A stretch of 32,000 nt of DNA from Geobacter sulfurreducens PCA (GTDB lineage Bacteria; Desulfobacterota; Desulfuromonadia; Geobacterales; Geobacteraceae), in the NCBI RefSeq assembly GCF_000007985.2, contig NC_002939.5, forward strand, positions 3,150,001-3,182,000, given 5' to 3'. Below, piece after piece: positions 2,548 through 23,469 of this stretch; positions within the stretch are counted from its first letter, which is position 1; every line of letters starts with the position of its first letter. Below the pieces are notes generated by a model that was given only the letters and a program-made list of their open reading frames with translations, searched no databases and was not told the DNA's origin. Position numbers and translations under genes: made by a program.

Positions 2548-3282
2548 TCAGAAACGGACCTTTTGGAGACAGAGTCCCTGGGGAGGAGCGGTGGGACCGG
2601 CCGGAACGACGCCCGGGCAGACAACCATCTGCGCCACGTGCTCCGGCGTCAGCTTCCCCCGCCCCACCTCCACCAGCGTGCCCACCATGATCCGGACCAT
2701 GTTGCGCAGAAAGCCCGAGCCATGGACATCCACCGTAAGCATCTCCCCGTCGTCACTGATCTCCACGGCATCCACCCGGCGAATGGTGGTCCGTGCGGCA
2801 CAGCCGGCAGTGCGGAAGGAGGCGAAATCCCGCTCACCTGTCAGGTGACGGGCCGCTTCGCGCATGGCGGCGAGGTTGAGCGCCCCCCGCACGTGCCATG
2901 ACTGGAGGCGGACCAAGGGGGAGCGGCGCTCTCCCCGATGGATGGTGTACCGATAATGCTTGCCGGTGGCCGCAAACCGCGGGTTGAAGCCCGGCAGGGC
3001 CTCATCGGCGCTTCGCACGGCGATGTCCGGCGGAAGCAGGGCATTGAGACCATCCGAAAACGCGCGCAGGGGAATCGACCGGTCCGTGTCAAAGGCAGCC
3101 ACCATCCCCCGGGCATGGACCCCGGCATCGGTGCGTCCCGATGCACGCAACCGCACGGGCTCCTTGAGCAGGCGCGCCAAGGCGCCCTCCACCACCTCCT
3201 GAATGGAAAGACCGTTGGGCTGCAGCTGCCAGCCGGCATAGTTGGTGCCGTCATATTCGAGTATGAGTTTGATGGTCCGCAT
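2548..3282 (-). CDS. truA: tRNA pseudouridine(38-40) synthase TruA
   Basis: 244 aa: MRTIKLILEYDGTNYAGWQLQPN...SGRTDAGVHARGMV (catalytic Asp motif)...FLRNMVRIMVGTL. Typical TruA. Confidence 0.93.
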   Translation of the reverse strand: MRTIKLILEYDGTNYAGWQLQPNGLSIQEVVEGALARLLKEPVRLRASGRTDAGVHARGMVAAFDTDRSIPLRAFSDGLNALLPPDIAVRSADEALPGFNPRFAATGKHYRYTIHRGERRSPLVRLQSWHVRGALNLAAMREAARHLTGERDFASFRTAGCAARTTIRRVDAVEISDDGEMLTVDVHGSGFLRNMVRIMVGTLVEVGRGKLTPEHVAQMVVCPGVVPAGPTAPPQGLCLQKVRF

Positions 3283-4496: not shown

Positions 4497-5585
4497 TTAC
4501 AGGGCTGCGATGATCGCGTCGCCCATCTCCTTGGTGTTGACGAGTTTCTCGCCGTCTTTCTGCTGGTAGATGTCGCGGGTCCGGAAGCCCTGGTCAAGCA
4601 CCGTTGCCACCGCGTTGTCGATGGCGTCGGCCGCGTCGACCATGCCGAAGGAGAACTTGAGCATCATCCCCATGGAGAGGATCTGGGCGATGGGGTTGGC
4701 GATCCCCTGGCCAGCTATGTCAGGGGCGCTGCCGCCGGAGGGCTCGTACATGCCGAAGGTCCCCTCGGCCAGGGACGCGGAAGGCAGCATCCCGAGGGAG
4801 CCGGTCAGCATGGCCGCCTCGTCCGAGAGGATGTCGCCGAACATGTTCTCGCACAGGATCACGTCGAACTGCTTGGGCCAGCGGACCAGTTGCATGGCGG
4901 CGTTGTCCACGTACATGTGGGAGAGTTCCACGTCCGGGTATTCCTTGGCAATGCCGGTGACCACCTCGCGCCAGAGAACCGACGAGGAGAGGACGTTGGC
5001 CTTGTCGATGGAGCAGACCTTCTTGCCCCGCTTGCGGGCAGCCTGGAAGGCCACATGGGTTATCCGCTCGATCTCGGGCACGCTGTAGCGCATGGTGTCG
5101 AAGCCGACCCGGTCGCGCCCTTCGCCTTCGATCCCCTTGGGCTGGGCAAAGTAGATGCCGCCGGTGAGCTCCCGGATGACCAGCACGTTGAAGCCCCCGG
5201 CTATTACCTCTTCCTTGAGGGAGGAGGCGCCGGTGAGGGACGGGAAAATGATGGCCGGCCGCAGGTTGGCGTAGAGACCGAAGATCTTCCGCAGCGGCAG
5301 GAGCGCGCCCCGCTCGGGCTGCTCGTCCGGAGGGAGCGACTCCCACTTGGGTCCGCCCACGGAGCCGAAGAGGATGGCGTCGGCAGCCTTGCAGATGTTC
5401 ACGGTGGTTTCGGGGAGAGCTTTCCCCTCGATATCAATGCCGGCGCCACCCACGTTGGCGTGGGTCCGCTCGAACTTCACGTCGTATTTTGCCTCCACGG
5501 CATCCAGCACCCGGAGCGCCTCGGCCATCACCTCGGGACCGATGCCGTCGCCGGGAAGAACCGCCACCTTGAACACCTGAGCCAT
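4497..5585 (-). CDS. leuB: 3-isopropylmalate dehydrogenase
   Basis: 362 aa: [13 protein letters not shown]...NLRP...[10 protein letters not shown]-like ([15 protein letters not shown])...[26 protein letters not shown]...[18 protein letters not shown]. Canonical LeuB motifs. Confidence 0.95.
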
Positions 5586-5625
5586 CCGAACCCCCTTCTT
5601 GCAGTAAAAATTCCAAAAGTTCTCA

Positions 5626-5655
5626 ATTCTATTGGTGAATACAAATGGTTGTCAA
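5626..5655 (-). promoter_or_regulatory. Candidate sigma70 promoter for the leuB-asd-truA block
   Basis: Minus strand: -35 TTGACA (5655-5650), 18-nt spacer, -10 TAGAAT (5631-5626), about 40 nt upstream of the leuB ATG in an AT-rich gap. Confidence 0.5.
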
Positions 5656-7969: not shown

Positions 7970-10102
7970 TCAGTACCAGGTCTTCGAACCGTGGTTGTAG
8001 CTGCAGACCGTCCCGCAGGTGCGGGTGGTGGGGTTCCAGGTGGACAGCGTCACGTTGACCTTGGTGGCCCGGGTAGAGACGGTCGACGGCGTGTGGTTGC
8101 CCGGCCCGTGGGTGCCGTCGGTACGTCCGGTGCCGTAGGTTCCGTGACAGGTGCTGCAGGCCACCCGGTGGTCCGACTTGCCGTGCTGGCCGGCGATGTT
8201 CGGGAACGTGGAGCCGGTTGGGCGCCCCAGATTGACGCCGGTAGCGCCGGCGGTGCCGTGGCAGGAAGAGCAGTCGGCAACGCCGTAGGGGCTCTTCACC
8301 ACATGGCACGAACGGCAGTCTGGCGCCGTATAGTTGGGAGACGTCCCGGCCGGATAGGGGGCAGTTGCGCTGGCATTGGCGTGGCAGCCCGAACACTGGG
8401 CCGTGGTGGGGGCCGGCGACTTGTGGGTGTAGTAAGGAACCGCGTGGCCGCCCGAAGCCTCCACAACTCCGTTGATATGCTTCGATGCGTCGGTGAAGCC
8501 GGTGCCCGAGGCGTTCACGTGGGGGTGACAGCCGGTGCAGTCGGTGGCCACCTTGCCTGTATGAACGGAAGTTGCCGGCGGGAAGCCGTGGCAAGTGCCG
8601 CAACCGGTGAGAGTCGCTCCCCATACGGGGCTCTTTGTGGTGCCGCCCGTGAGGGTTGCGCCGTGGCAGTAAACAGTGGCGCAGGTCTTGGTTCCGGCTG
8701 TCCAGGTGGCCGTGGCCCCCACCCGAGCATTGGTGGTGTCCAGGTTCACATCAATGGCTCCATTGGTGTGGAGCGTCGATCCGGCCTTGATGGCGGTGCC
8801 CGTGGTCGTGGTGTTCGCGTGGCAGAGGGCACAGTCGGCGGCCGCGGCCACGTGCTTGGCGTGGCTGTTGGCCAGGGCCGTACCGGAGCCGCCGCTGGCG
8901 TAGTCGGGGGTACCGAGTGGGTTCAAGGTCCCGTGGCAGCCGTTGCACCCCATGGCCGCACCGGTCCAAGCGGGGGTTGGCGGCTGGGGAGCCGTGGCCT
9001 TGCCCGAGGAGTGACAGGTAGTGGCGGAACAGGTTTTGGCGGTGGCATTCCAGGTGCCGCCCCCCACAAAGGCGACCGTTTTGACGCCGTCAACGTGGGC
9101 AGCCACACCGGTAACCGCACGGTCATTGCCGGCGCTGACCGGTCCGTTGTGGCAGCGGGCGCATTCGATGGTGGTTCCGAGGACCGCTGCGGCGTTCACG
9201 TGCTGGGCGTGGAGCCCGGTGATGATGGGAGCGGCCGAAGCGGCGTTGCCCCCGTGGCAGCCGGTACAGTCGGCAGCAAGCGTCCCGCCCCAGGTGGCGG
9301 TGGCCCTGGCTGCGCCGCCGTTGCCGTCGCTGTGGCAGTACATGGCCGTGCAGGTGCCGTTGCGGTTGGCGGCGGTGGTCTGGCTCGGCAGGTAATTGGG
9401 ATAGTTCAGGTTGGCGGTCTTAGAGTAGGTTCCCGCCGTATTGGGTGCCGCGGTAAAACGGAGGATCAACCCGCGGTTGCCGGCGCTGGAGGCATGGGCA
9501 AAGGGCTTGGCCGCCGCCGCATGGTCCGGGTGACATTTCACGCAGGAACCGGTGCCGGTACCGTAGTAGTCACCATGCTTCCTGCCGGAGCCTGCCGTGG
9601 CCGCAGGATGGCTCCCATCGGCAGGGGGAAGCCCATGGCAGATGGAACAACCGGCGGGCACGGTGAGGGGACCGCTGCTCCAGACAGGGGTGGTCTTCTC
9701 GAAATGGCAGTTGACGTTGGAGCAGGTCCCCATGACCGGGTTGGAGGTCTGGTTGAAGAAGACCCCCTTGCCGTAGGTTGCTGCCAGAGGCGATGCATTG
9801 ATGTTCGACGCCATCTCGATGGTGCCGTTCATGTGGTCCATGGCGTAGGACCCGCTGCCGGTGTGGCAGACGGCGCAGGCTCCCGCCGGGGCTGTTGCGG
9901 GCTGATGGGTCTGATGGCTCCCCTTGAACCCGCCGGTAGTGATGTTGCGATAGGCCGCGTCTATGGGAGGCATGCCGTGGCAGTCGCTGCAGGTGGAGGC
10001 CGCAGCCGCCGTGTCCGCCAGGCCGACGGCAAGCATCAGGGCCAGTGCCCCGACAAACGCGCTGCCCACCCCTTTCCTGTCGCTCGTTGTATCGATCGCC
10101 AT
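7970..10102 (-). CDS. Multihaem c-type cytochrome, CxxxxCH...CxxCH-domain family (14 CxxCH + 4 CxxxxCH)
   Basis: ORF track 7970..10150, where the longest form starts at a TTG. The ATG at 10102 is preceded by GGAAAGGGAAAG and gives the signal peptide MAIDTTSDRKGVGSAFVGALALMLAVGLADTAAAAS. Hand count of sites: CSDCH, CAVCH, CSICH, CVKCH, CTGCH, CARCH, CNGCH, CALCH, CGTCH, CTGCH, CSGCH, CRSCH, CSSCH, CSTCH, plus CSNVNCH, CTAMYCH, CSATTCH and CATVYCH. Confidence 0.9.
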   Translation of the reverse strand: MAIDTTSDRKGVGSAFVGALALMLAVGLADTAAAASTCSDCHGMPPIDAAYRNITTGGFKGSHQTHQPATAPAGACAVCHTGSGSYAMDHMNGTIEMASNINASPLAATYGKGVFFNQTSNPVMGTCSNVNCHFEKTTPVWSSGPLTVPAGCSICHGLPPADGSHPAATAGSGRKHGDYYGTGTGSCVKCHPDHAAAAKPFAHASSAGNRGLILRFTAAPNTAGTYSKTANLNYPNYLPSQTTAANRNGTCTAMYCHSDGNGGAARATATWGGTLAADCTGCHGGNAASAAPIITGLHAQHVNAAAVLGTTIECARCHNGPVSAGNDRAVTGVAAHVDGVKTVAFVGGGTWNATAKTCSATTCHSSGKATAPQPPTPAWTGAAMGCNGCHGTLNPLGTPDYASGGSGTALANSHAKHVAAAADCALCHANTTTTGTAIKAGSTLHTNGAIDVNLDTTNARVGATATWTAGTKTCATVYCHGATLTGGTTKSPVWGATLTGCGTCHGFPPATSVHTGKVATDCTGCHPHVNASGTGFTDASKHINGVVEASGGHAVPYYTHKSPAPTTAQCSGCHANASATAPYPAGTSPNYTAPDCRSCHVVKSPYGVADCSSCHGTAGATGVNLGRPTGSTFPNIAGQHGKSDHRVACSTCHGTYGTGRTDGTHGPGNHTPSTVSTRATKVNVTLSTWNPTTRTCGTVCSYNHGSKTWY
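8931..9346. repeat. 416-bp near-identical direct repeat, copy 1 (inside cytochrome 7970..10102)
   Basis: Base-for-base match to 11776..12191 (offset 2845 bp) with one mismatch noticed (codon N versus D in HAQHV[N/D]AAA). The flanking homologous sequence is visibly more diverged at synonymous sites. Confidence 0.9.
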
Positions 10103-10217
10103 CGTCTTTCCCTTTCCGGCAGAACGGAACTGAAACGGACATTCCCTCAAGTGTAGCAGAACATTGTCCGGATGCCGGGCCGGGGGAAATGTTCCCTCCG
10201 GCCGGTGGCGAAGTTTT

Positions 10218-16128: not shown

Positions 16129-18795
16129 CTACCAGGTTTGAACGCCGATGGACTTACGCAGAATCAGTATAGCATCCTGCAGGTCAATCTTCCCGTCGGG
16201 GCGAACTATGCCGTTGACCAGGGGGCCCACGTCGGCTGCGGCGTAGTCGTCGGCGGTCGGCGCCACGGCCCCTACCGCGATCCTGAGAACCCGCAGGACG
16301 TCTGCGATGGTTACCGTGCCATCGCTGTTCACATCACCTGTCGGCACGGGGGCAGACAGGCTCCGCGCCGTGACGTTGCCGGCAGCGTCGGTGGCGGTAA
16401 TCCGCAGGGTCGCCGGGTCATGGGGCGTACCGGCGAGATTGATGCTCCAGGCCCCATCGGAGGAGGCGAACAGGCCGAGAGTGCCGGACCGATCGCTTAC
16501 CATCACCGTGGCATCCCGGCCGGCGGTGCCGGCAAGGACGGCCGGCGGCGGCGAGGTCTGACCGGCGATGAGCAGCAACGGCGGAGTCCGGTCGACCACC
16601 AGGTTGCGGGTGGTGCTGGCAGAGGCACCGGTTGCGTCGGTAGCGGTCACGGTCACGGCATGGGCCCCTTCGAGCCCCGCCGGCACCGTAAGGCTGAAGG
16701 CGCTGCCGGTCAGGGTAACCGGCACGGCAGCCCCGTCCACGGTGGCAGAGAGGGTTACACCATCTTCCACGGCACCCGAGATGACGATGCTTTCGGCAAC
16801 GGTTGCCAGGTCTTCGGCCGGCGAGACGATTACCGCCTGGGGTGCGTCGGCATCGTAAAAGACCGTGCGTTTGAGGCGCGCCGTGGCTCCCGACGAGGCG
16901 GCAACGCCGATCTCGATGGTGTTCAGGCCAGGGGCGAGAGTCACCCGCCTGCTCCAGCCCGTATCGCTCACCGTGGCGACTACGCCGTTCACCGTCACGG
17001 TGACGCCGGCCGGGGCGGTGCCGGCAACCTCCACAACGGGCGTCCTCGTGCGGCTGCCATCGGAGGGCGCAACCACCGCCAGTTCGGGCGCAGCCGGATC
17101 AAAGGTAACGCTGCGGCCGTCGGTTACGCTGTTGCCGGCCTGGTCAGTGGCCGTGACCGTTAGCGTGGTGACGCCGTTGGCAAGGACCAGCGGCATACTG
17201 GCACTACCGTTCAGCAGCGTCACAGCCTTGCCGTTGACCGTAACGCCCTGGAGGTGAGGATCAACGGCGGCGATGGTCACGTTGTGGACCCTGACCCCGC
17301 TCCGGCTTCCATTGGCGAGGGTGGAGACCACCAACTGCGGCGCGCGGGTATCCACGGTCACCACCAGGCTTTCTGAGGCGCCACCCGTTGAGAGGGTTAT
17401 GAGGTTGGCGCCCTCGGCGAGGCCGCTCAGCACACTGCGCCAGGTGGAGGAAGTGGGATAGGTGACGGCGGCGGTTGCTCCCGTCGTCCCGTTGAGAATC
17501 GCAAGGGACACGCCGGCGGCGCGGGAACCGGTCAGGGTGACGCTGGTGGTGTTCAGCAGGGGCGGGACGGGGCCGATGGAGAAGAACGTATTGGTCACAG
17601 TCAGCACCACCGACCCGCCGACGGTGGCAATATTGCCAGCCGCGTCAACGGCCTGCACCGTAATACTGTTGAGACCGGGAGTAAGGGCGACAGTGGCGCT
17701 CCAGCCCGAGCCGCTCGTCACGGCCGGCTTGGCGACCCCGCCGTTTACCGACACCGTCACCGTGGCCCCGGCCTCTACGGACCCGCCCACGGCCAGCGAG
17801 GCGGTCAGGGTCGACACGGGTAGCGGATCAAGGGTGATCGCCGGCGGAGTCGTATCCACCGGCAGATAGCCTGCGCCGATGCCGTACAGCACCATGTCGC
17901 CGGCGCCGTTGGCCACCACGAGCCGACTGCCCGCGGCATCGAACAGGGCATCGGAGGGTGCGTTCAACAGGCCGGTGCCGGCGCCGTAGGAACCGATGAA
18001 CGCGAGGAACGCGCCGCTTCCTGCCGGGTCGATCACCTGGACGGTGCTCTGGAAGGAGTCGACCACGTACATTCTGAGCAGCGTGGGGGTTGCGCCGGCC
18101 GAATACTCGAAGGTGATGCCCTGGGGCAACGTGAGTTTGAGGGGGCCGGACCCGAAGGAACAAAGGGTCCGCTGAAAGATGCCGTTTGTGTCAAAAAACT
18201 GAATGCGTCCGTTCAGCGAGTCGACAACGGCCAACTGACCGGAAATCTTCTCGTAGGCAATGCCGGTCGGCATATTGAACTGGCCACTGCCAAAGCCGGC
18301 CGTTCCGAAACGGCTCAGGTAGTCACCCGTGGCAGTGAATACCTGGACGCAGTTACCCAGACTGTCTGTTACGTAAATCCTGCCTGCCGCATCCAGAACA
18401 ACACCGTTGGCCATCTTGAATTGTCCCGTGCCGGAACCCAGACGGCGCAACTCTTTCCCGGTCTGGTCCATGAGGGCCACAAAATCGCCCTGGCTCACCA
18501 CCAGGTTTCCCGTCGCGGTAAGTGCAACCCCCTGGGGCGCCTTGGCAGTGGGGATCAACCGGTCGAAACGGCCGGTGGAGGTGAAGCGCACGATACCGCC
18601 GCCCCGGGAATCGGTGACATACAGGTTGCCGGAAGAGTCTGTGGCGAGACGGACCGGAGACCGGAGACCGTCCGTCACTGACGGCAATGGTGTCACCTGC
18701 GGCGGGGTTGCCGCCAGGCCGCCCGCAATGCCGACCGCTTGGGCACCAACAATGACAACTACCGCCGCCAACAGCTTCCGGACCGTACCAACCAT
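16129..18795 (-). CDS. Secreted NHL-repeat beta-propeller / Ig-like domain array / dockerin-like C-terminal protein
   Basis: ORF track 16129..18798 starts at a GTG; an ATG follows at 18795, with GGGAGG 5-8 nt upstream. The signal peptide is MVGTVRKLLAAVVVIVGAQAVG. About six NHL-type blades follow (repeated P.GVA.D..G.LYV.DS.N..V..F). The middle holds repeated ~90-aa Ig-like units (..V.V.VNG..A....GW...V.L..G.N.I...A.D.AGN). The C-terminus is GDVNSDGTVTIADVLRVLR...RPDGKIDLQDAILILRK, which are dockerin/EF-hand-like duplicated loops. Confidence 0.9.
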   Translation of the reverse strand: MVGTVRKLLAAVVVIVGAQAVGIAGGLAATPPQVTPLPSVTDGLRSPVRLATDSSGNLYVTDSRGGGIVRFTSTGRFDRLIPTAKAPQGVALTATGNLVVSQGDFVALMDQTGKELRRLGSGTGQFKMANGVVLDAAGRIYVTDSLGNCVQVFTATGDYLSRFGTAGFGSGQFNMPTGIAYEKISGQLAVVDSLNGRIQFFDTNGIFQRTLCSFGSGPLKLTLPQGITFEYSAGATPTLLRMYVVDSFQSTVQVIDPAGSGAFLAFIGSYGAGTGLLNAPSDALFDAAGSRLVVANGAGDMVLYGIGAGYLPVDTTPPAITLDPLPVSTLTASLAVGGSVEAGATVTVSVNGGVAKPAVTSGSGWSATVALTPGLNSITVQAVDAAGNIATVGGSVVLTVTNTFFSIGPVPPLLNTTSVTLTGSRAAGVSLAILNGTTGATAAVTYPTSSTWRSVLSGLAEGANLITLSTGGASESLVVTVDTRAPQLVVSTLANGSRSGVRVHNVTIAAVDPHLQGVTVNGKAVTLLNGSASMPLVLANGVTTLTVTATDQAGNSVTDGRSVTFDPAAPELAVVAPSDGSRTRTPVVEVAGTAPAGVTVTVNGVVATVSDTGWSRRVTLAPGLNTIEIGVAASSGATARLKRTVFYDADAPQAVIVSPAEDLATVAESIVISGAVEDGVTLSATVDGAAVPVTLTGSAFSLTVPAGLEGAHAVTVTATDATGASASTTRNLVVDRTPPLLLIAGQTSPPPAVLAGTAGRDATVMVSDRSGTLGLFASSDGAWSINLAGTPHDPATLRITATDAAGNVTARSLSAPVPTGDVNSDGTVTIADVLRVLRIAVGAVAPTADDYAAADVGPLVNGIVRPDGKIDLQDAILILRKSIGVQTW

Positions 18796-18849
18796 CACCC
18801 GAGCCTCCCGGCGCCCCGCGTCTGCCGCTTCCCGCCGTCCAGCGGGCGC

Positions 18850-18895
18850 AGAAAAGCCGGGGCCACTTATCCTTCGGATAATTCGGCATCCCGGC
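18850..18895 (-). terminator. Intrinsic terminator (expression platform) of riboswitch unit A
   Basis: Minus-strand GCCGGGAUGCC (18895-18885, the 3' part of the aptamer) pairs with GGCCCCGGC (18864-18856), with a 2-nt bulge, and is followed by UUUUCUGCG. An inner hairpin UUAUCC-GAA-GGAUAA sits in the loop. Confidence 0.55.
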
Positions 18896-18960
18896 TGTCT
18901 CTAGGAGACCCTAGGCTTTCCGCCCCGCCCTCGCGGACGGTTTAGTCTTATCGTGTATCC
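18876..18960 (-). promoter_or_regulatory. GEMM-I (cyclic-dinucleotide) riboswitch aptamer, unit A, in the 5' leader of the NHL/cytochrome operon
   Basis: Minus-strand RNA: GGAUACACGAUAAGACUAAACCGUCCGCGAGGGCGGGGCGGAAAGCCUAGGGUCUCCUAGAGACAGCCGGGAUGCCGAAUUAUCC. It matches the remembered GEMM-I consensus ..AAACC-stem-GNRA-stem-GRCGCAAAGCC.CGGGUCU...GACAGCCGGGUUGCCGAA. Confidence 0.7.
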
Positions 18961-18993
18961 AGTATTTATTTTGTTACTTTTGCGTTTTATTTA

Positions 18994-19009
18994 TGCAACA
19001 AACAAGCCA
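18994..19009 (-). promoter_or_regulatory. Candidate sigma54 (-24/-12) promoter between the two riboswitch units
   Basis: Minus strand TGGCTT-GTTTG-TTGCA versus the consensus TGGCAC-N5-TTGCA. The GG and GC are correctly spaced. The predicted start is about 20-30 nt upstream of aptamer A. Confidence 0.4.
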
Positions 19010-19027
19010 ACCAGCAGAAATGGCACA

Positions 19028-19080
19028 GAAAAAATAAAAAGCCGGGAGCCTCATATCATCAGATACTTCGGCATCCCGGC
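19028..19080 (-). terminator. Intrinsic terminator (expression platform) of riboswitch unit B
   Basis: Minus-strand GCCGGGAUGCC (19080-19070) pairs with GGCUCCCGGC (19050-19041), giving 10 bp with one bulged U, followed by UUUUUAUUUUUUC. Confidence 0.7.
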
Positions 19081-19145
19081 CATCTCCTTGAGACCCTGGG
19101 CTTTCCGCCCCACCCTCGCGGATGGTTTAGTCTTATCGGCTATCC
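19062..19145 (-). promoter_or_regulatory. GEMM-I (cyclic-dinucleotide) riboswitch aptamer, unit B
   Basis: Minus-strand RNA: GGAUAGCCGAUAAGACUAAACCAUCCGCGAGGGUGGGGCGGAAAGCCCAGGGUCUCAAGGAGAUGGCCGGGAUGCCGAAGUAUC. It is about 89 percent identical to unit A over the 72-nt core. The hairpin CCAUCC-GCGA-GGGUGG differs from CCGUCC-GCGA-GGGCGG in unit A by a compensatory A-U to G-C change. Confidence 0.7.
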
Positions 19146-19344
19146 AGCTATCTATTTATTATTTCGGATATGTTTACCGGATATCAAAATTCAAACAAAA
19201 AAGCAACAAGACAACAATTATTGTTGCCTAACCGGCTCTTGGCGTCTTCATCGGCGAAATCACCGGATGCCCGGACGCGGATCGGGCCCAACCATTCAAG
19301 AAAACACCCGCGATGAGCACCCGGTCATGCAGCCCGCCAGGACC

Positions 19345-19389: not shown

Positions 19390-20451
19390 CTACCTGTGCT
19401 CGTCGCAGGCACTGGTGAGGGCGGTGCAGTTCCCCTCCCCGTAGGAGGTCGGCGACGATGCCTTCCTGAAGTTCGTCATGACCTGCGCCTTCTTGCCGGT
19501 GGAATCGATATAGGCATAGGGCGCGGGGTCGGAGTTGTAGCCGATGAACCGGCCGTGGTTCAGGCCGTGCGGACTCACCGAATGGCACGCGACACAGGCC
19601 ACATTGTTCTCGTGGTCGCTTTCGCTGTGAACGTTGTTGTACCAGCCGCTGGAGCCGCCACTTCCCTTGAGGGGGTGACACTTGGCGCAGAACAGGGTGG
19701 TCTGCCAGTTGCCGGTGTTGTTACGCACGTCTCCCAAGGTCCAGAGCTTGCCGTCGGAGCGCGCGGGCCAGGTGGTGCCGGTAATCAGCATGGACTTACC
19801 GGTCGAGCCGGGGGTGTGACAGTCGCTGCACTTCATCACCTGGGTGCCGACGGCGGTCCAGGGTGCCTTCATCTGGTTTGCCCGCAGAGCCCGCGGCGCG
19901 GCGGAGCCGGTCTGGCTGTTGAGGGGCACCTGGACCGGGTGGGCCGACGCGTTGGCCGGGTTGAACTCCCGGGCCTTGTCGGTAAAGGGCTTGCCCGACG
20001 GGCCGACGATGGCGCTCACGCCGTTGGTGGCGGAGAACGCATAGGTGGAGTGACACTTATAGCACAGCTGGTACTCCTTGGTCGCAGGCTGCACGGCCGT
20101 GTACCCGGTCGGCGAGGTCCACGCCGCCGTAGCATTCGGCTGGACCCCGTTGTACTGGCTGAAGTTGGCGACGTAGTCGCCGTGCTTGTCCAGGTGGGAC
20201 TGGGCGCCGTGGCAATTGGAGCAGGCATACTGCTGGCCCGCCACACCGGCGGTGATGGTGTCCATTACATCCTGGTTCGTACTGTTGTGACAGGTCTGGC
20301 AGACGGTGGCCGCAAAGCCGCCGTGTTGCGTGATCAGGTTGTTCTTGTGACAGAAGGAGCAGGTCCCCTGCCCCACCGCGGCCACATGCCCCGCCATGGC
20401 CGGAACGGCCATGGCGAGCAGTGCTGCGAATGTCATGACTATGCGTTTCAT
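19390..20451 (-). CDS. Heptahaem c-type cytochrome
   Basis: ORF track 19390..20490. The ATG at 20451 is preceded by GGAGGA at about 6 nt and gives the signal peptide MKRIVMTFAALLAMAVPAMA. Seven CxxCH sites: CSFCH, CQTCH, CSNCH, CYKCH, CSDCH, CAKCH, CVACH. Confidence 0.9.
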   Translation of the reverse strand: MKRIVMTFAALLAMAVPAMAGHVAAVGQGTCSFCHKNNLITQHGGFAATVCQTCHNSTNQDVMDTITAGVAGQQYACSNCHGAQSHLDKHGDYVANFSQYNGVQPNATAAWTSPTGYTAVQPATKEYQLCYKCHSTYAFSATNGVSAIVGPSGKPFTDKAREFNPANASAHPVQVPLNSQTGSAAPRALRANQMKAPWTAVGTQVMKCSDCHTPGSTGKSMLITGTTWPARSDGKLWTLGDVRNNTGNWQTTLFCAKCHPLKGSGGSSGWYNNVHSESDHENNVACVACHSVSPHGLNHGRFIGYNSDPAPYAYIDSTGKKAQVMTNFRKASSPTSYGEGNCTALTSACDEHR

Positions 20452-20504
20452 AGGGCTCCTCCATTGATCGGTCAGTTGGATGTGGTTCACGTCTCGCCTC
20501 CCCG

Positions 20505-23159
20505 CTACTGCACCAGGAAGGCCCCCTCGGCAACATAGAGGCTGCTCGAGGTGGTGGTGACACGGAACTTCATCCAGCCGTAGCCGTTCATCCGCTGCGC
20601 GATGGAGGTGACGTCGATATCTTTCCAGCCGGCGCTGCTCGTGCTGTAGCTCACCGAGTAGTAGCTGTTCACCGATGTGCCGTTGGACTGGTACGGATAG
20701 ATGCGCAGCGTCCGCGACGAACTGATGGAGGAGACATACAGCCGCAGCACTACCTTGCTTGCGGTCAGGGCGTCGCGGTTCAGCTTCATGGCGATGACGT
20801 AGTTCTCGCCACTCTTGTACTGCAGCAGATACCGGTCTGCAAGGTTGCTGTCGCGGAACTTCGAGGTCAGGTCGTTGCTGTTGCTGTCAGAGGAGGTGAC
20901 GCTGCTCAGCCGCTGCAGGTACAGCACCTGGTCCGCAAACACCGAACTGCTGCCCGCCTGGCTCTGAACCGTCACCACCGCCGTGTCGCTGGCCGTGTCG
21001 CCGCTGTTGTCGGTCACGGTAAGGGTCACCGTGTAGGTGCCTGCCGTGGTGTAGGTTTTGGTGACGCTCACCCCGCTTCCCGTGGTGCCGTCGCCGAAGT
21101 TCCACACATACCCCACGATACTTCCGTCAGGATCGCTGGAGCCCGAACCGGAGAAGGTGATGGCCTGGCCGACGGTAACGGTCCGGTCAGCCCCCGCGTT
21201 GGCCGAAGGGCCCCGGTTGGCGCCGCCGTGGATCATGGTGTGGCAACTGCGGCAGTTCTGCTGGATTCCAGCCATGCCGTCGCTGATGGTCTTGACGTAC
21301 AGCTCATTGGTGCTCGTATGGCAGCCGTTGCAGTAGACCGGTGTGGCGGCCTTCTCATGGGCTGTCACCGCGTTGTCCGAATGGCACTGGCCGCAGTTGG
21401 GGGCGGGCAGTCCCACCATGTCGTGCTGCCCGGCGTGGTTGCCGAAGCCGCCGATGGCGCTGTGGCAGTCAGCACAATAGACGAGCGTGCCGCCCAGCCC
21501 CTTCTGCACCGCCGCCGTCACCGACGCGTTATCGCTGGCGTGGCAGGCCGCGCACTGAAAGCCCTTCACAGCGTGCAGCTCAACCAGGTTCGGAATATGA
21601 CAGGAGCTGCAGTCGCCGTACGGGACCAGCACCTTGCCGTCGTGGGCGCTCTGGTGGGTCACCTGGCCGTGGCAGTCCACGCAGGAGACCGCCTGGCCGC
21701 TCCGCCCCGCGGCAATGGCCTGCTGGACCGCCGTGCTGCTGCTGGAGTGGCAGGTGGCGCAGGTAGACGTGCGGGTCAGGTGCTCGTCGAGCACGCTCTT
21801 GGTGTGGCACTGGGCACAGGCCGGAGAGGCAAGCGCCTGATCGTGCTGGGCCACGTGGTTAACCGCCCCGTGGCAGCTGGCGCAGGAGACCGTGATCCCG
21901 GCGCGGCCGTCGCTTATCGTCTTCTGCACCGCGGCGTTGGTGCTGTTGTGGCAGGTGGCGCAGGTGGAAGAGCGGTTCGTGTGCTCGTACACCACGCCCT
22001 GGCCATGGCACGAGGCGCAATCGGCAGGGGTGGTCACCTTGTCGTGCTGCTGGACGTGGTTCACGTTCGCGTGGCAGTTGGAGCAGTAGACCGTGGTGCC
22101 CGCCTTGCCGGCGGCAATGGCCTGCTGGACCGCGGGAGCGGCGCTCGAGTGGCAGGTGGCGCAGGTTGAAGCCCGCGAAAGGTGCTCGTTCACCACCCCC
22201 AGGTTGTGGCACTGGGCACAGTCGGCATTGGCCATGGCCTTGTCGTGTTGCTGGATGTGGTTCACGGCGCCGTGACAGTTGGCGCAGGAAACCATGGTGC
22301 CGGTCCGGCCGAGGGTGATCGTCTGCTGCACCGTGGTGCTGGAACTGTTGTGGCAGGTGGCGCAGGTGGAGGTCCGGTTGGTGTGCTCCTGGACCGGCCC
22401 CTGATTGTGGCAGCCGGAGCAATCCGCCGGCGTGGAAACCTTGTCGTGCTGAAGCACGTGGTTCACCGTGCCGTGGCAGGTAACACAGTACACGGCGATG
22501 CCGGCCCGGCCGTCGGCGATGGCTTTCTGCACCGCGGGCTGGGTGCTGGCGTGACAGGTGGCGCAGGTGGAGGTCCGGTTCAGGTGTTCGAAGACGACCC
22601 CTTGGGCGTGGCACTGCACGCAGTCGGGAGAGGGGAATGCCCTGTCATGCTGGACAATGTGGTTCACCGCGCCGTGGCAGGTGATACAATTGACCATGAC
22701 GCCGGCCCGGCCGTCGGTGATGGCCTTCTGCACCGCGGGAGCCGTGCTGGAATGGCAGGTGGAGCAGGACGACGTTCTGCTCAGGTGCTCGGCCACGGGG
22801 GTCTGGGTGTGGCACTGGGCGCAATCGGCCGCGGTGGCAACCATGTTGTGGGCCGCAGCGTGGTCCACTTGGCCGTGGCAGACGATACAGTCGGTGATCA
22901 CCTCGATGGTGAATCCGCCCGATCCGTCGGGGATCGCCCGGTGGCACTGGAGGCAGGTGATGCCCTTGCTGCTGGCTACCGCATGGTGTTGCTGGGGAAT
23001 AGAGCCGTAGGTGCTCCCGGTGTGGCACGTCGTGCAGTCGGTTGCGGTAAGAGCCTGGGCATCCCGGACAATTCCCGGACCGGCCGTCAGCATGACGGCT
23101 ACCCCCCACAGGCACATCAGAATCTGCGGGAAAATGGTGATAATCCTCGACCTGTTCAA
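20505..23159 (-). CDS. 27-haem c-type cytochrome (nine tri-haem modules) with a PKD domain and a beta-rich C-terminal domain
   Basis: ORF track 20505..23225, where the longest form starts at a TTG. I prefer the TTG at 23159, which is preceded by AAGGAGGA at 9 nt and gives a signal-like N-terminus NRSRIITIFPQILMCLWGVAVMLTAGPGIVRDAQA. The alternative ATG at 23117 has no SD. There are 27 CxxCH motifs by hand count. The PKD signature is ITFSGSGSSDPDGSIVGYVWNFGDGTTG...YTVTLTVTDNSG. Confidence 0.9.
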   Translation of the reverse strand: MNRSRIITIFPQILMCLWGVAVMLTAGPGIVRDAQALTATDCTTCHTGSTYGSIPQQHHAVASSKGITCLQCHRAIPDGSGGFTIEVITDCIVCHGQVDHAAAHNMVATAADCAQCHTQTPVAEHLSRTSSCSTCHSSTAPAVQKAITDGRAGVMVNCITCHGAVNHIVQHDRAFPSPDCVQCHAQGVVFEHLNRTSTCATCHASTQPAVQKAIADGRAGIAVYCVTCHGTVNHVLQHDKVSTPADCSGCHNQGPVQEHTNRTSTCATCHNSSSTTVQQTITLGRTGTMVSCANCHGAVNHIQQHDKAMANADCAQCHNLGVVNEHLSRASTCATCHSSAAPAVQQAIAAGKAGTTVYCSNCHANVNHVQQHDKVTTPADCASCHGQGVVYEHTNRSSTCATCHNSTNAAVQKTISDGRAGITVSCASCHGAVNHVAQHDQALASPACAQCHTKSVLDEHLTRTSTCATCHSSSSTAVQQAIAAGRSGQAVSCVDCHGQVTHQSAHDGKVLVPYGDCSSCHIPNLVELHAVKGFQCAACHASDNASVTAAVQKGLGGTLVYCADCHSAIGGFGNHAGQHDMVGLPAPNCGQCHSDNAVTAHEKAATPVYCNGCHTSTNELYVKTISDGMAGIQQNCRSCHTMIHGGANRGPSANAGADRTVTVGQAITFSGSGSSDPDGSIVGYVWNFGDGTTGSGVSVTKTYTTAGTYTVTLTVTDNSGDTASDTAVVTVQSQAGSSSVFADQVLYLQRLSSVTSSDSNSNDLTSKFRDSNLADRYLLQYKSGENYVIAMKLNRDALTASKVVLRLYVSSISSSRTLRIYPYQSNGTSVNSYYSVSYSTSSAGWKDIDVTSIAQRMNGYGWMKFRVTTTSSSLYVAEGAFLVQ
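21222..23039 (-). repeat. Coding tandem array: nine ~201-bp (67-aa) tri-haem modules
   Basis: The module consensus is DC.QCH....V.EH..RTSTCATCHSS...AVQ.AI..GRAG..V.C..CHG.VNH..QHD. Modules 2-6 are exactly 67 aa; the first and last three are more diverged. The 201-bp periodicity also shows in shadow ORFs, for example those starting at 21892 and 22093. Confidence 0.85.
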
Positions 23160-23469
23160 AGCGCAAAGTCCTCCTTTCAATGATTCTTCACACTGGCGGG
23201 TTAACAATACAAATACACAATTCAATATACAGCGATGTCAAAAACACATCACAGGCGGAACAAATTAACGCATCTTACTTAAAAAAACAAGGGGAAAAAT
23301 ACGACAAATCAACACATTGCAGCGTTTACAGAGATACGGAAAGGCTCCTCAAAACACACATAAAATCAAACAAGTGCGGCATCTCAACAGTCATTTAACC
23401 GTCATGTCCGGCGAAATAGCCGGACAATGCAACGTAACTGCGCAACTGCCGGTACATGAGAGACCGTTA

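Follow-up and report, generated by a model that had tools for sequence, protein, structure and literature searches.

In their survey of GEMM RNAs, Weinberg 2007 found one third of the delta-proteobacterial examples to be tandem and noted that the 5' side of a terminator often overlaps the 3' side of the P2 helix, so that ligand binding should raise expression. Of the 17 GEMM-I riboswitches in Geobacter sulfurreducens, several are arranged in tandem, and the leader of GSU2885 was presented as an example of a tandem GEMM-Ib riboswitch ("regulated by tandem riboswitches"), with the other two pairs belonging to GSU0183 and GSU1948 (Hallberg 2019, eLife, PMC6456294). Twelve of the 17 RNAs were shown to bind cGAMP (3',3'-cyclic GMP-AMP), and GSU2885 was placed among the cGAMP-riboswitch transcripts (PMC8835794). 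Here, we analyzed a 32 kb stretch of the G. sulfurreducens PCA genome (contig NC_002939.5), referred to below as the window, in which the tandem elements of the GSU2885 leader lie on the minus strand at positions 18850-19145. The tandem GEMM-Ib riboswitches of this leader were reportedly first catalogued by Kellenberger 2015 and Nelson 2015. Both elements are already annotated, and their tandem architecture and their dependence on the cGAMP synthase in vivo are already published. On the evidence below, we consider it very likely that this single 5' leader holds two complete GEMM-Ib (3',3'-cGAMP) riboswitches in series, which correspond to GSUR3017 and GSUR3016.

The correspondence was established from published coordinates. 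The supplement of Hallberg 2019 (PMC6456294) lists GSU2885 at 3175417..3172751 (2,667 nt), GSUR3016 (GSU2885b) at 3175467-3175581 and GSUR3017 (GSU2885a) at 3175652-3175766. Applying an offset of 3,156,622 places the two elements at window positions 18845-18959 and 19030-19144, which reproduces the 185-nt period exactly, and the published length of the GSU2885 coding sequence (CDS) matches window positions 18795-16129. The published coordinates fall on the 18850-19145 interval with the same period and therefore identify both units as GSUR3016 and GSUR3017; coordinates, period, CDS length and proteins all coincide.

The window was scanned with the Rfam models, and the only matches at gathering level were the two aptamers on the minus strand, both of which aligned over the full length of RF01051 (c-di-GMP-I, model positions 1-87) and exceeded its gathering score of 35 (Table 1). 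The initial annotation, made from the sequence before any database search, had proposed two GEMM-I-like aptamers on this strand with a period of 185 bp and had suggested a covariance search with RF01051 as a check; that search returned significant matches for both units. The repeated modules (19157-19037 and 18971-18852) are 84% identical over 122 columns with a period of exactly 185 nt, the module beginning directly downstream of the -10 element predicted for the leader promoter and ending within the terminator U-tract, and the 75-nt aptamer cores are 93% identical and gap-free. A GCGA tetraloop of the GNRA type caps P1 in the GEMM-I fold of both units, and the A-U versus G-C difference between the copies in this hairpin, which had been read as compensatory, proved to be a true compensatory pair (columns 19/30).

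The class of the aptamers was judged from the ligand-contact bases. In the Vc2 aptamer, G20 contacts the ligand at its G-alpha, and an adenine (A14) replaces G20 in the Gs1761 cGAMP riboswitch (PMC6140456). Both units carry A/A/C at the equivalents of G20, A47 and C92, with agreement between the RF01051 and RF03167 alignments. The adenine at the G20 equivalent (model position 11) was aligned with top posterior probability in both units and both models, as the initial annotation had proposed, and the doubt it had attached to this assignment on account of a nearby indel can be dropped, since the model alignment contains no indel at or next to that site. The A/A/C combination corresponds to the GEMM-Ib signature and predicts that both units respond to cGAMP. 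The placement of GEMM-Ib-type elements upstream of an NHL/cytochrome operon likewise stood, with GSU2885-omcA-omcH-omcG lying downstream. The c-di-GMP-I-GGC variant (RF03167) was also considered and was rejected: its matches of 50.1 and 46.5 bits were slightly higher in raw score, yet below the gathering score of 59, and this family needs G at both the 20- and 47-equivalents, where both units have A.

Each aptamer is followed by a hairpin that would compete with it. The 3' strand of each aptamer had been suggested to pair alternatively with a downstream GGC(U/C)CCCGGC followed by a U-tract. The pairing itself was borne out: the P2 3' strand GCCGGGAUGCC is present in both units, the downstream partners GGCUCCCGGC and GGCCCCGGC are present as well, and the resulting hairpins are stable (-27.3 kcal/mol with a z score of -5.0 for terminator 1, none of 200 shuffles being equally stable; -25.1 kcal/mol with a z score of -3.1 for terminator 2). 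The U-tract is UUUUUAUUUUUU in the first unit and short (UUUUCUG) in the second, so that this part of the suggestion stands less well for unit 2. In the minimum free energy (MFE) folds of each whole unit the terminator hairpin forms and P2 does not. Because the hairpin displaces P2, folding predicts that the default state would be OFF and that ligand would be required for read-through. This is in line with the mutually exclusive aptamer and terminator of an ON switch, as proposed in the initial annotation and as modeled by Weinberg 2007. Control is predicted to be transcriptional, because the Shine-Dalgarno sequence (18809-18804) and the ATG (18795) sit outside both hairpins. A generic terminator scan with a loop limit of 3-8 nt missed both riboswitch terminators, whose loops are larger; direct folding found both.

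These features suggest the following mechanism. A single promoter at approximately 19187-19158, the sole promoter match in the leader, precedes unit 1 and would start the leader transcript. Without ligand, pairing of GCCGGGAUGCC and the downstream GGC(U/C)CCCGGC would create an intrinsic terminator in each unit, whereas binding of cGAMP, made by the Hypr GGDEF enzyme GacA, would hold this strand in P2 and allow RNA polymerase to read through. The ligand dependences of the two units would multiply, because polymerase would have to pass both checkpoints to reach GSU2885-omcA-omcH-omcG, and serial checkpoints of this kind would keep basal expression very low and make the dynamic range large. Termination by each terminator in vivo and the selectivity of each aptamer for cGAMP over cyclic di-GMP (c-di-GMP) are predictions from the sequence.

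Published expression data are consistent with this arrangement. Values in Hallberg 2019 (PMC6456294) for wild type (WT), the esnD mutant, described as having lowered c-di-GMP, and the gacA mutant were 126, 185 and 31 for GSU2885a, 45, 69 and 4 for GSU2885b, and 85, 136 and 3 for GSU2885, with log2 (gacA/WT) values of -2.0, -3.5 and -4.8 (-4.82), respectively. Deletion of gacA, which encodes the cGAMP synthase, thus lowered unit a 4-fold, unit b 11-fold and the gene 28-fold. This stepwise fall from unit a to unit b to the gene fits the prediction of serial checkpoints, as well as the two-checkpoint response anticipated in the initial annotation, with the last decrease, from unit b to the gene, resting on counts of 3-4.

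In order to place the leader in a wider context, an alignment of 17 GSU2885 homologs was used to retrieve 56 loci from species-representative genomes, and these loci were searched with a covariance model derived from both window aptamers. The search identified 26 further aptamers with scores of 72-102 bits in 20 loci beside NHL-homolog genes, all on the gene strand and nearly all upstream. Together with the window units, all 28 aptamers showed A/A/C at the three ligand-contact columns. Across this set, 92.6% of cells were paired, compared with 35-49% when partners were slid, and compensatory changes were seen in four of the six P1b pairs; P2 is nearly invariant and gives little covariation information, and the sequences had been aligned by fitting them to the model. 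In 26 of the 28 units, the P2 3' strand takes part in a hairpin that ends 24-32 nt past the aptamer and precedes a U-run. Sequence comparison therefore indicates that the A20 signature, in all units, and the overlapping terminator, in nearly all, are conserved beside homologous operons across Geobacterales.

Tandem pairs were found in six other loci (L010, L017, L020, L021, L045 and L051) with spacings of 206-280 nt, which brings the tandem arrangement to 7 of the 21 loci analyzed, window included. Between L020 and L021 the a copies share an identity of 0.90 and the b copies 0.89, whereas the two copies of a pair share 0.76. Orthology between species thus holds for the a copies and for the b copies, and for this reason the tandem arrangement is old and maintained. 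A recent duplication specific to G. sulfurreducens was rejected, because the two window units (identity 0.71 with flanks) resemble each other no more than they resemble units of other species, and because a/b orthology also occurs in other loci. The relatives also differ in their promoters: in L045 and L051 both aptamers, and in L017 the b copy, have near-consensus sigma-70 promoters ahead of them (Table 1), so the second unit in these loci would be fed by its own promoter in addition to read-through from unit 1, a logic unlike the single-promoter leader of the window.

Some members of the comparative set have a different layout. In Geomonas silvestris (L020:1307-1590) and G. limicola (L021:1273-1554), the tandem pair lies approximately 1.4 kb upstream of the NHL-homolog gene, and another gene probably sits between them. 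In L015, a strong single GEMM-Ib aptamer (5572-5648), whose terminator is very stable (-30.9 kcal/mol), lies just downstream of the NHL-homolog match; this tblastn match ends at 5256 and covers residues 29-771 only, and the aptamer presumably controls the next gene.

Per-base RNA sequencing (RNA-seq) coverage of the leader was taken from the Figure 3D source data of Hallberg 2019 (PMC6456294) and is given below as WT/gacA mutant/esnD mutant, with transcription running toward lower coordinates. Coverage climbs from background between genome positions 3175782 and 3175754 (window 19160-19132), consistent with a start just downstream of the predicted -10 element, within approximately 10 nt. It then forms a plateau of approximately 122/29/200 across aptamer 1, terminator 1, its U-tract and the entire linker. 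With coverage as high over the linker as over aptamer 1, these data show that one continuous transcript spans aptamer 1, the linker and aptamer 2.

Several observations nevertheless count against two cGAMP-specific checkpoints that both act by termination. There is no coverage step at the U-tract of terminator 1 (122/29/200 on both sides) or, in any strain, at that of terminator 2 (44-45/3/74). Coverage drops sharply at a single place, window 18966-18953, where unit 2 has its 5' edge, and reaches approximately 40/3.5/65 there. Terminator 2 has just four consecutive U, the weakest U-tract among the 28 related units. The RNA had been purified by RNeasy, which depletes RNAs shorter than approximately 200 nt, and this cut-off should not hide a terminator 2 product of approximately 300 nt; none is seen. 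With regard to the ligand, A20 is necessary for recognition of cGAMP and is no proof of exclusive selectivity, since the G20A mutant of Vc2 has similar affinities for c-di-GMP (53 nM) and cGAMP (120 nM) and natural GEMM-Ib RNAs include bispecific ones (PMC6140456). The proposal that each unit has its own functioning terminator is hence supported by sequence and comparative analysis, and the published coverage shows no step at either U-tract.

The preparation of the RNA bears on the first unit in particular. Owing to RNeasy purification and sequencing as 125-nt paired-end reads, a terminator 1 product of approximately 120 nt would be lost and a discrete small RNA would be seen as a plateau. This loss can explain the missing step at terminator 1, and the 4-fold lower plateau in the gacA mutant can be explained if only molecules past terminator 1 are visible.

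The size cut-off does not explain the edge at the 5' boundary of unit 2, which lies approximately 70 nt downstream of the terminator 1 U-tract. The ratio of coverage after and before this drop amounts to 0.31 (WT) and 0.13 (gacA mutant), and the pgcA terminator gives ratios of 0.32 and 0.15 in the same data. The edge implies a discrete leader RNA of approximately 175-195 nt, which begins at the start site, takes in aptamer 1, terminator 1 and the linker, ends at approximately 18961-18953 and is explained by neither intrinsic terminator. This RNA could be a processing product, from failed transcripts cleaved just upstream of unliganded aptamer 2, or a stable riboswitch-derived small RNA with its own role, although we regard this explanation as quite unlikely. 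In the literature examined, neither processing nor a small RNA of this kind was found described for GEMM-Ib leaders. As a speculation, transcripts ended at terminator 2 might then be cleaved just upstream of unliganded aptamer 2, in which case the second checkpoint would appear as RNA decay and not as a terminated species.

Two other sources of the edge were examined and rejected. An artefact of repeat cross-mapping at 18961 is unlikely, given that the longest stretch shared by the repeats is approximately 15 nt, their identity is 84% with gaps, paired-end reads of 125 nt were used and coverage over the unique linker reaches full height. Protection of the 3' end by pairing of the terminator 1 U-tract (UUUAUUUU) with AAAAUAAA just before the edge was not supported either: the helix forms only in the isolated linker fold, and it is missing from the folds of the 191-nt and 304-nt leader.

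The same coverage could be read as a sign that only one checkpoint is effective in vivo, with unit 1 regulating and unit 2 leaky or redundant because polymerase rarely stops at its weak terminator (UUUUCU). The flat coverage and the short U-tract at terminator 2 would fit, as would the near absence of leader RNA in the gacA mutant already before aptamer 2, which is also stated in PMC6456294. However, aptamer 2 outscores aptamer 1 (48.8 against 44.6 bits) and keeps every ligand-contact base, its terminator hairpin has a stable fold (-25.1 kcal/mol), the gacA effect increases from a log2 of -3.5 at unit b to -4.8 at the gene (on the low counts given above), and six other species keep intact terminators in both units with a and b copies as orthologs. 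We therefore judge a single effective checkpoint to be unlikely and favor two riboswitches in series.

A second question concerns the ligand: it might be c-di-GMP, or both dinucleotides might act, instead of cGAMP specifically. The aptamers match the c-di-GMP-I family, the genome annotation calls them 'cyclic diguanylate-responsive riboswitch', and the dual binding of Vc2 G20A and of natural bispecific GEMM-Ib RNAs described above points in the same direction. Against this, the adenine at the G20 equivalent is present in 28 of 28 related aptamers, expression collapses without GacA and rises in the esnD mutant with its lowered c-di-GMP (PMC6456294), and GSU2885 is counted among the cGAMP-riboswitch transcripts (PMC8835794). 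A response that is not specific to cGAMP is thus highly improbable. The possibility that each unit forms a promoter-riboswitch module of its own, in which case unit 2 would be transcribed from a separate promoter, is next to negligible, for although the promoters of L045, L051 and L017, the start of the window repeat right after the unit 1 -10 element and a -10-like ATAAAT kept by unit 2 would suit it, no promoter match and no acceptable -35 element at 16-18 nt spacing was found before unit 2 in the window, and coverage falls instead of rising there with the linker as high as aptamer 1.

The ATAAAT at 18964-18969 (minus strand) occupies a position homologous to the region just past the unit 1 promoter. 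By analogy with L045 and L051, it may be a remnant of a duplicated promoter like those of these relatives. Coordinates of the leader elements, the downstream genes and the promoters in related loci are collected in Table 1.

Table 1. Elements of the GSU2885 leader and operon in the window, and promoters predicted before aptamers of related loci.
Feature	Position	Strand	Basis or detail
Predicted sigma-70 promoter (TTGATA, 18-nt spacer, AATAAT)	19158..19187	-	10/12 consensus positions
Aptamer 1, core of GSUR3017 (GSU2885a)	19067..19141	-	RF01051 44.6 bits, E 9e-6
Predicted terminator 1, hairpin with P2 3' strand of aptamer 1 as 5' arm, then UUUUUAUUUUUU (19040-19029)	19029..19081	-	Folding
AU-rich linker, 34% G+C, with -10-like ATAAAT (18969-18964)	18957..19028	-	Composition, sequence
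Aptamer 2, core of GSUR3016 (GSU2885b)	18882..18956	-	RF01051 48.8 bits, E 9e-7
Predicted terminator 2, hairpin overlapping P2 3' strand of aptamer 2, short U-tract	18850..18895	-	Folding
Shine-Dalgarno GGGAGG of GSU2885	18804..18809	-	Read from sequence, 8 nt ahead of ATG at 18795
GSU2885, NHL-repeat / Ig-like domain protein, 888 aa, first regulated gene	16129..18795	-	Translation identical to AAR36277.1 (G. sulfurreducens PCA)
omcA, multihaem c-type cytochrome, 1038 aa	13002-16118	-	One cluster member of the 1038-aa protein named omcA
omcH, multihaem c-type cytochrome, 902 aa	10218-12926	-	Identical to AAR36275.1
omcG, multihaem c-type cytochrome	7970-10150	-	Operon gene order and names from Hallberg 2019 supplement
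Near-consensus sigma-70 promoters before both aptamers	L045:2448-2476, 2728-2756		10-11/12 matches, 23-28 nt upstream
Near-consensus sigma-70 promoters before both aptamers	L051:2322-2349, 2599-2626		10-11/12 matches, 23-28 nt upstream
Near-consensus sigma-70 promoter before b copy	L017:2736-2765		10-11/12 matches, 23-28 nt upstream

Pfam assigned NHL, Glucodextran_B and Big_13 domains to GSU2885, and Cytochrome_C7 and Paired_CXXCH to OmcA, OmcH and OmcG, which also carry the Geobacter CxxxxCH motif. Upstream of the leader, two further multihaem cytochrome genes lie on the minus strand at 19390-23225 (366 aa, and 906 aa with a PKD domain). The riboswitch operon is embedded in this larger cytochrome cluster, and published coverage shows cGAMP dependence only in the downstream part. 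The upstream cytochrome gene spans 19390-20490. Two features lie on the minus strand between it and the riboswitch promoter, at 19209-19229 and 19285-19305: a terminator-like hairpin with the sequence AGGCAACAATAATTGTTGTCT and a T-run after it, and a G+C-rich stretch with GUUUUCUU behind it. Published coverage of the transcript from upstream does not depend on GacA (WT 121, gacA mutant 111, esnD mutant 96) and falls at window 19291-19285, with approximately one quarter reading through into the riboswitch leader.

The two riboswitches link 3',3'-cGAMP to the outer-surface multihaem cytochromes OmcA, OmcH and OmcG for extracellular electron transfer to Fe(III) oxides, and the tandem arrangement gives the GSU2885 operon the largest cGAMP dependence in the regulon, approximately 28-fold. 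The analysis matters mainly as a positive control, in which a known and correctly interpreted regulatory element was recovered from sequence alone. What it adds is the conservation across Geobacterales, the orthology of the a and b copies, the promoter-containing modules in relatives and the unexplained 3' edge, all of which are refinements of a known system.

Compared with described systems, the window units are the same elements as GSUR3017 and GSUR3016 (PMC6456294), with no difference. The nearest other relative is the Gs1761 (pgcA) GEMM-Ib riboswitch (structures 4YAZ/4YB0), which shares the organism, the fold, the adenine at the G20 equivalent (A14), the ON switch by termination and the dependence on GacA in vivo. 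Unlike the tandem GSU2885 pair, Gs1761 consists of one unit, and its terminated leader is abundant in RNA-seq, with a read-through of approximately 0.32 (WT) and 0.15 (gacA mutant). Measured values of affinity and selectivity exist for Gs1761, whereas the cGAMP selectivity of the GSU2885 pair is predicted here. The Vc2 c-di-GMP-I riboswitch of Vibrio cholerae, the archetype of RF01051, has the same GEMM-I architecture of two helices, in which P1 carries a GNRA cap, A47 intercalates and C92 pairs with G-beta of the ligand; however, it has G20, binds c-di-GMP with picomolar affinity and discriminates against cGAMP, whereas the window units have A at this position (PMC6140456). The c-di-GMP-I-GGC variant (RF03167) belongs to the same clan and has the same fold as the window units but differs in its defining bases. 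In the relatives L045 and L051, each tandem unit carries its own promoter, unlike the window. As to the arrangement itself, the tandem GEMM RNAs of Weinberg 2007 likewise hold two full aptamer-plus-terminator units in one 5' untranslated region, for which more digital or stringent control was proposed. The tandem thiamine pyrophosphate (TPP) riboswitches of Bacillus anthracis (Welz and Breaker 2007), as far as they are described in Weinberg 2007, follow the same tandem logic, with no difference in kind.

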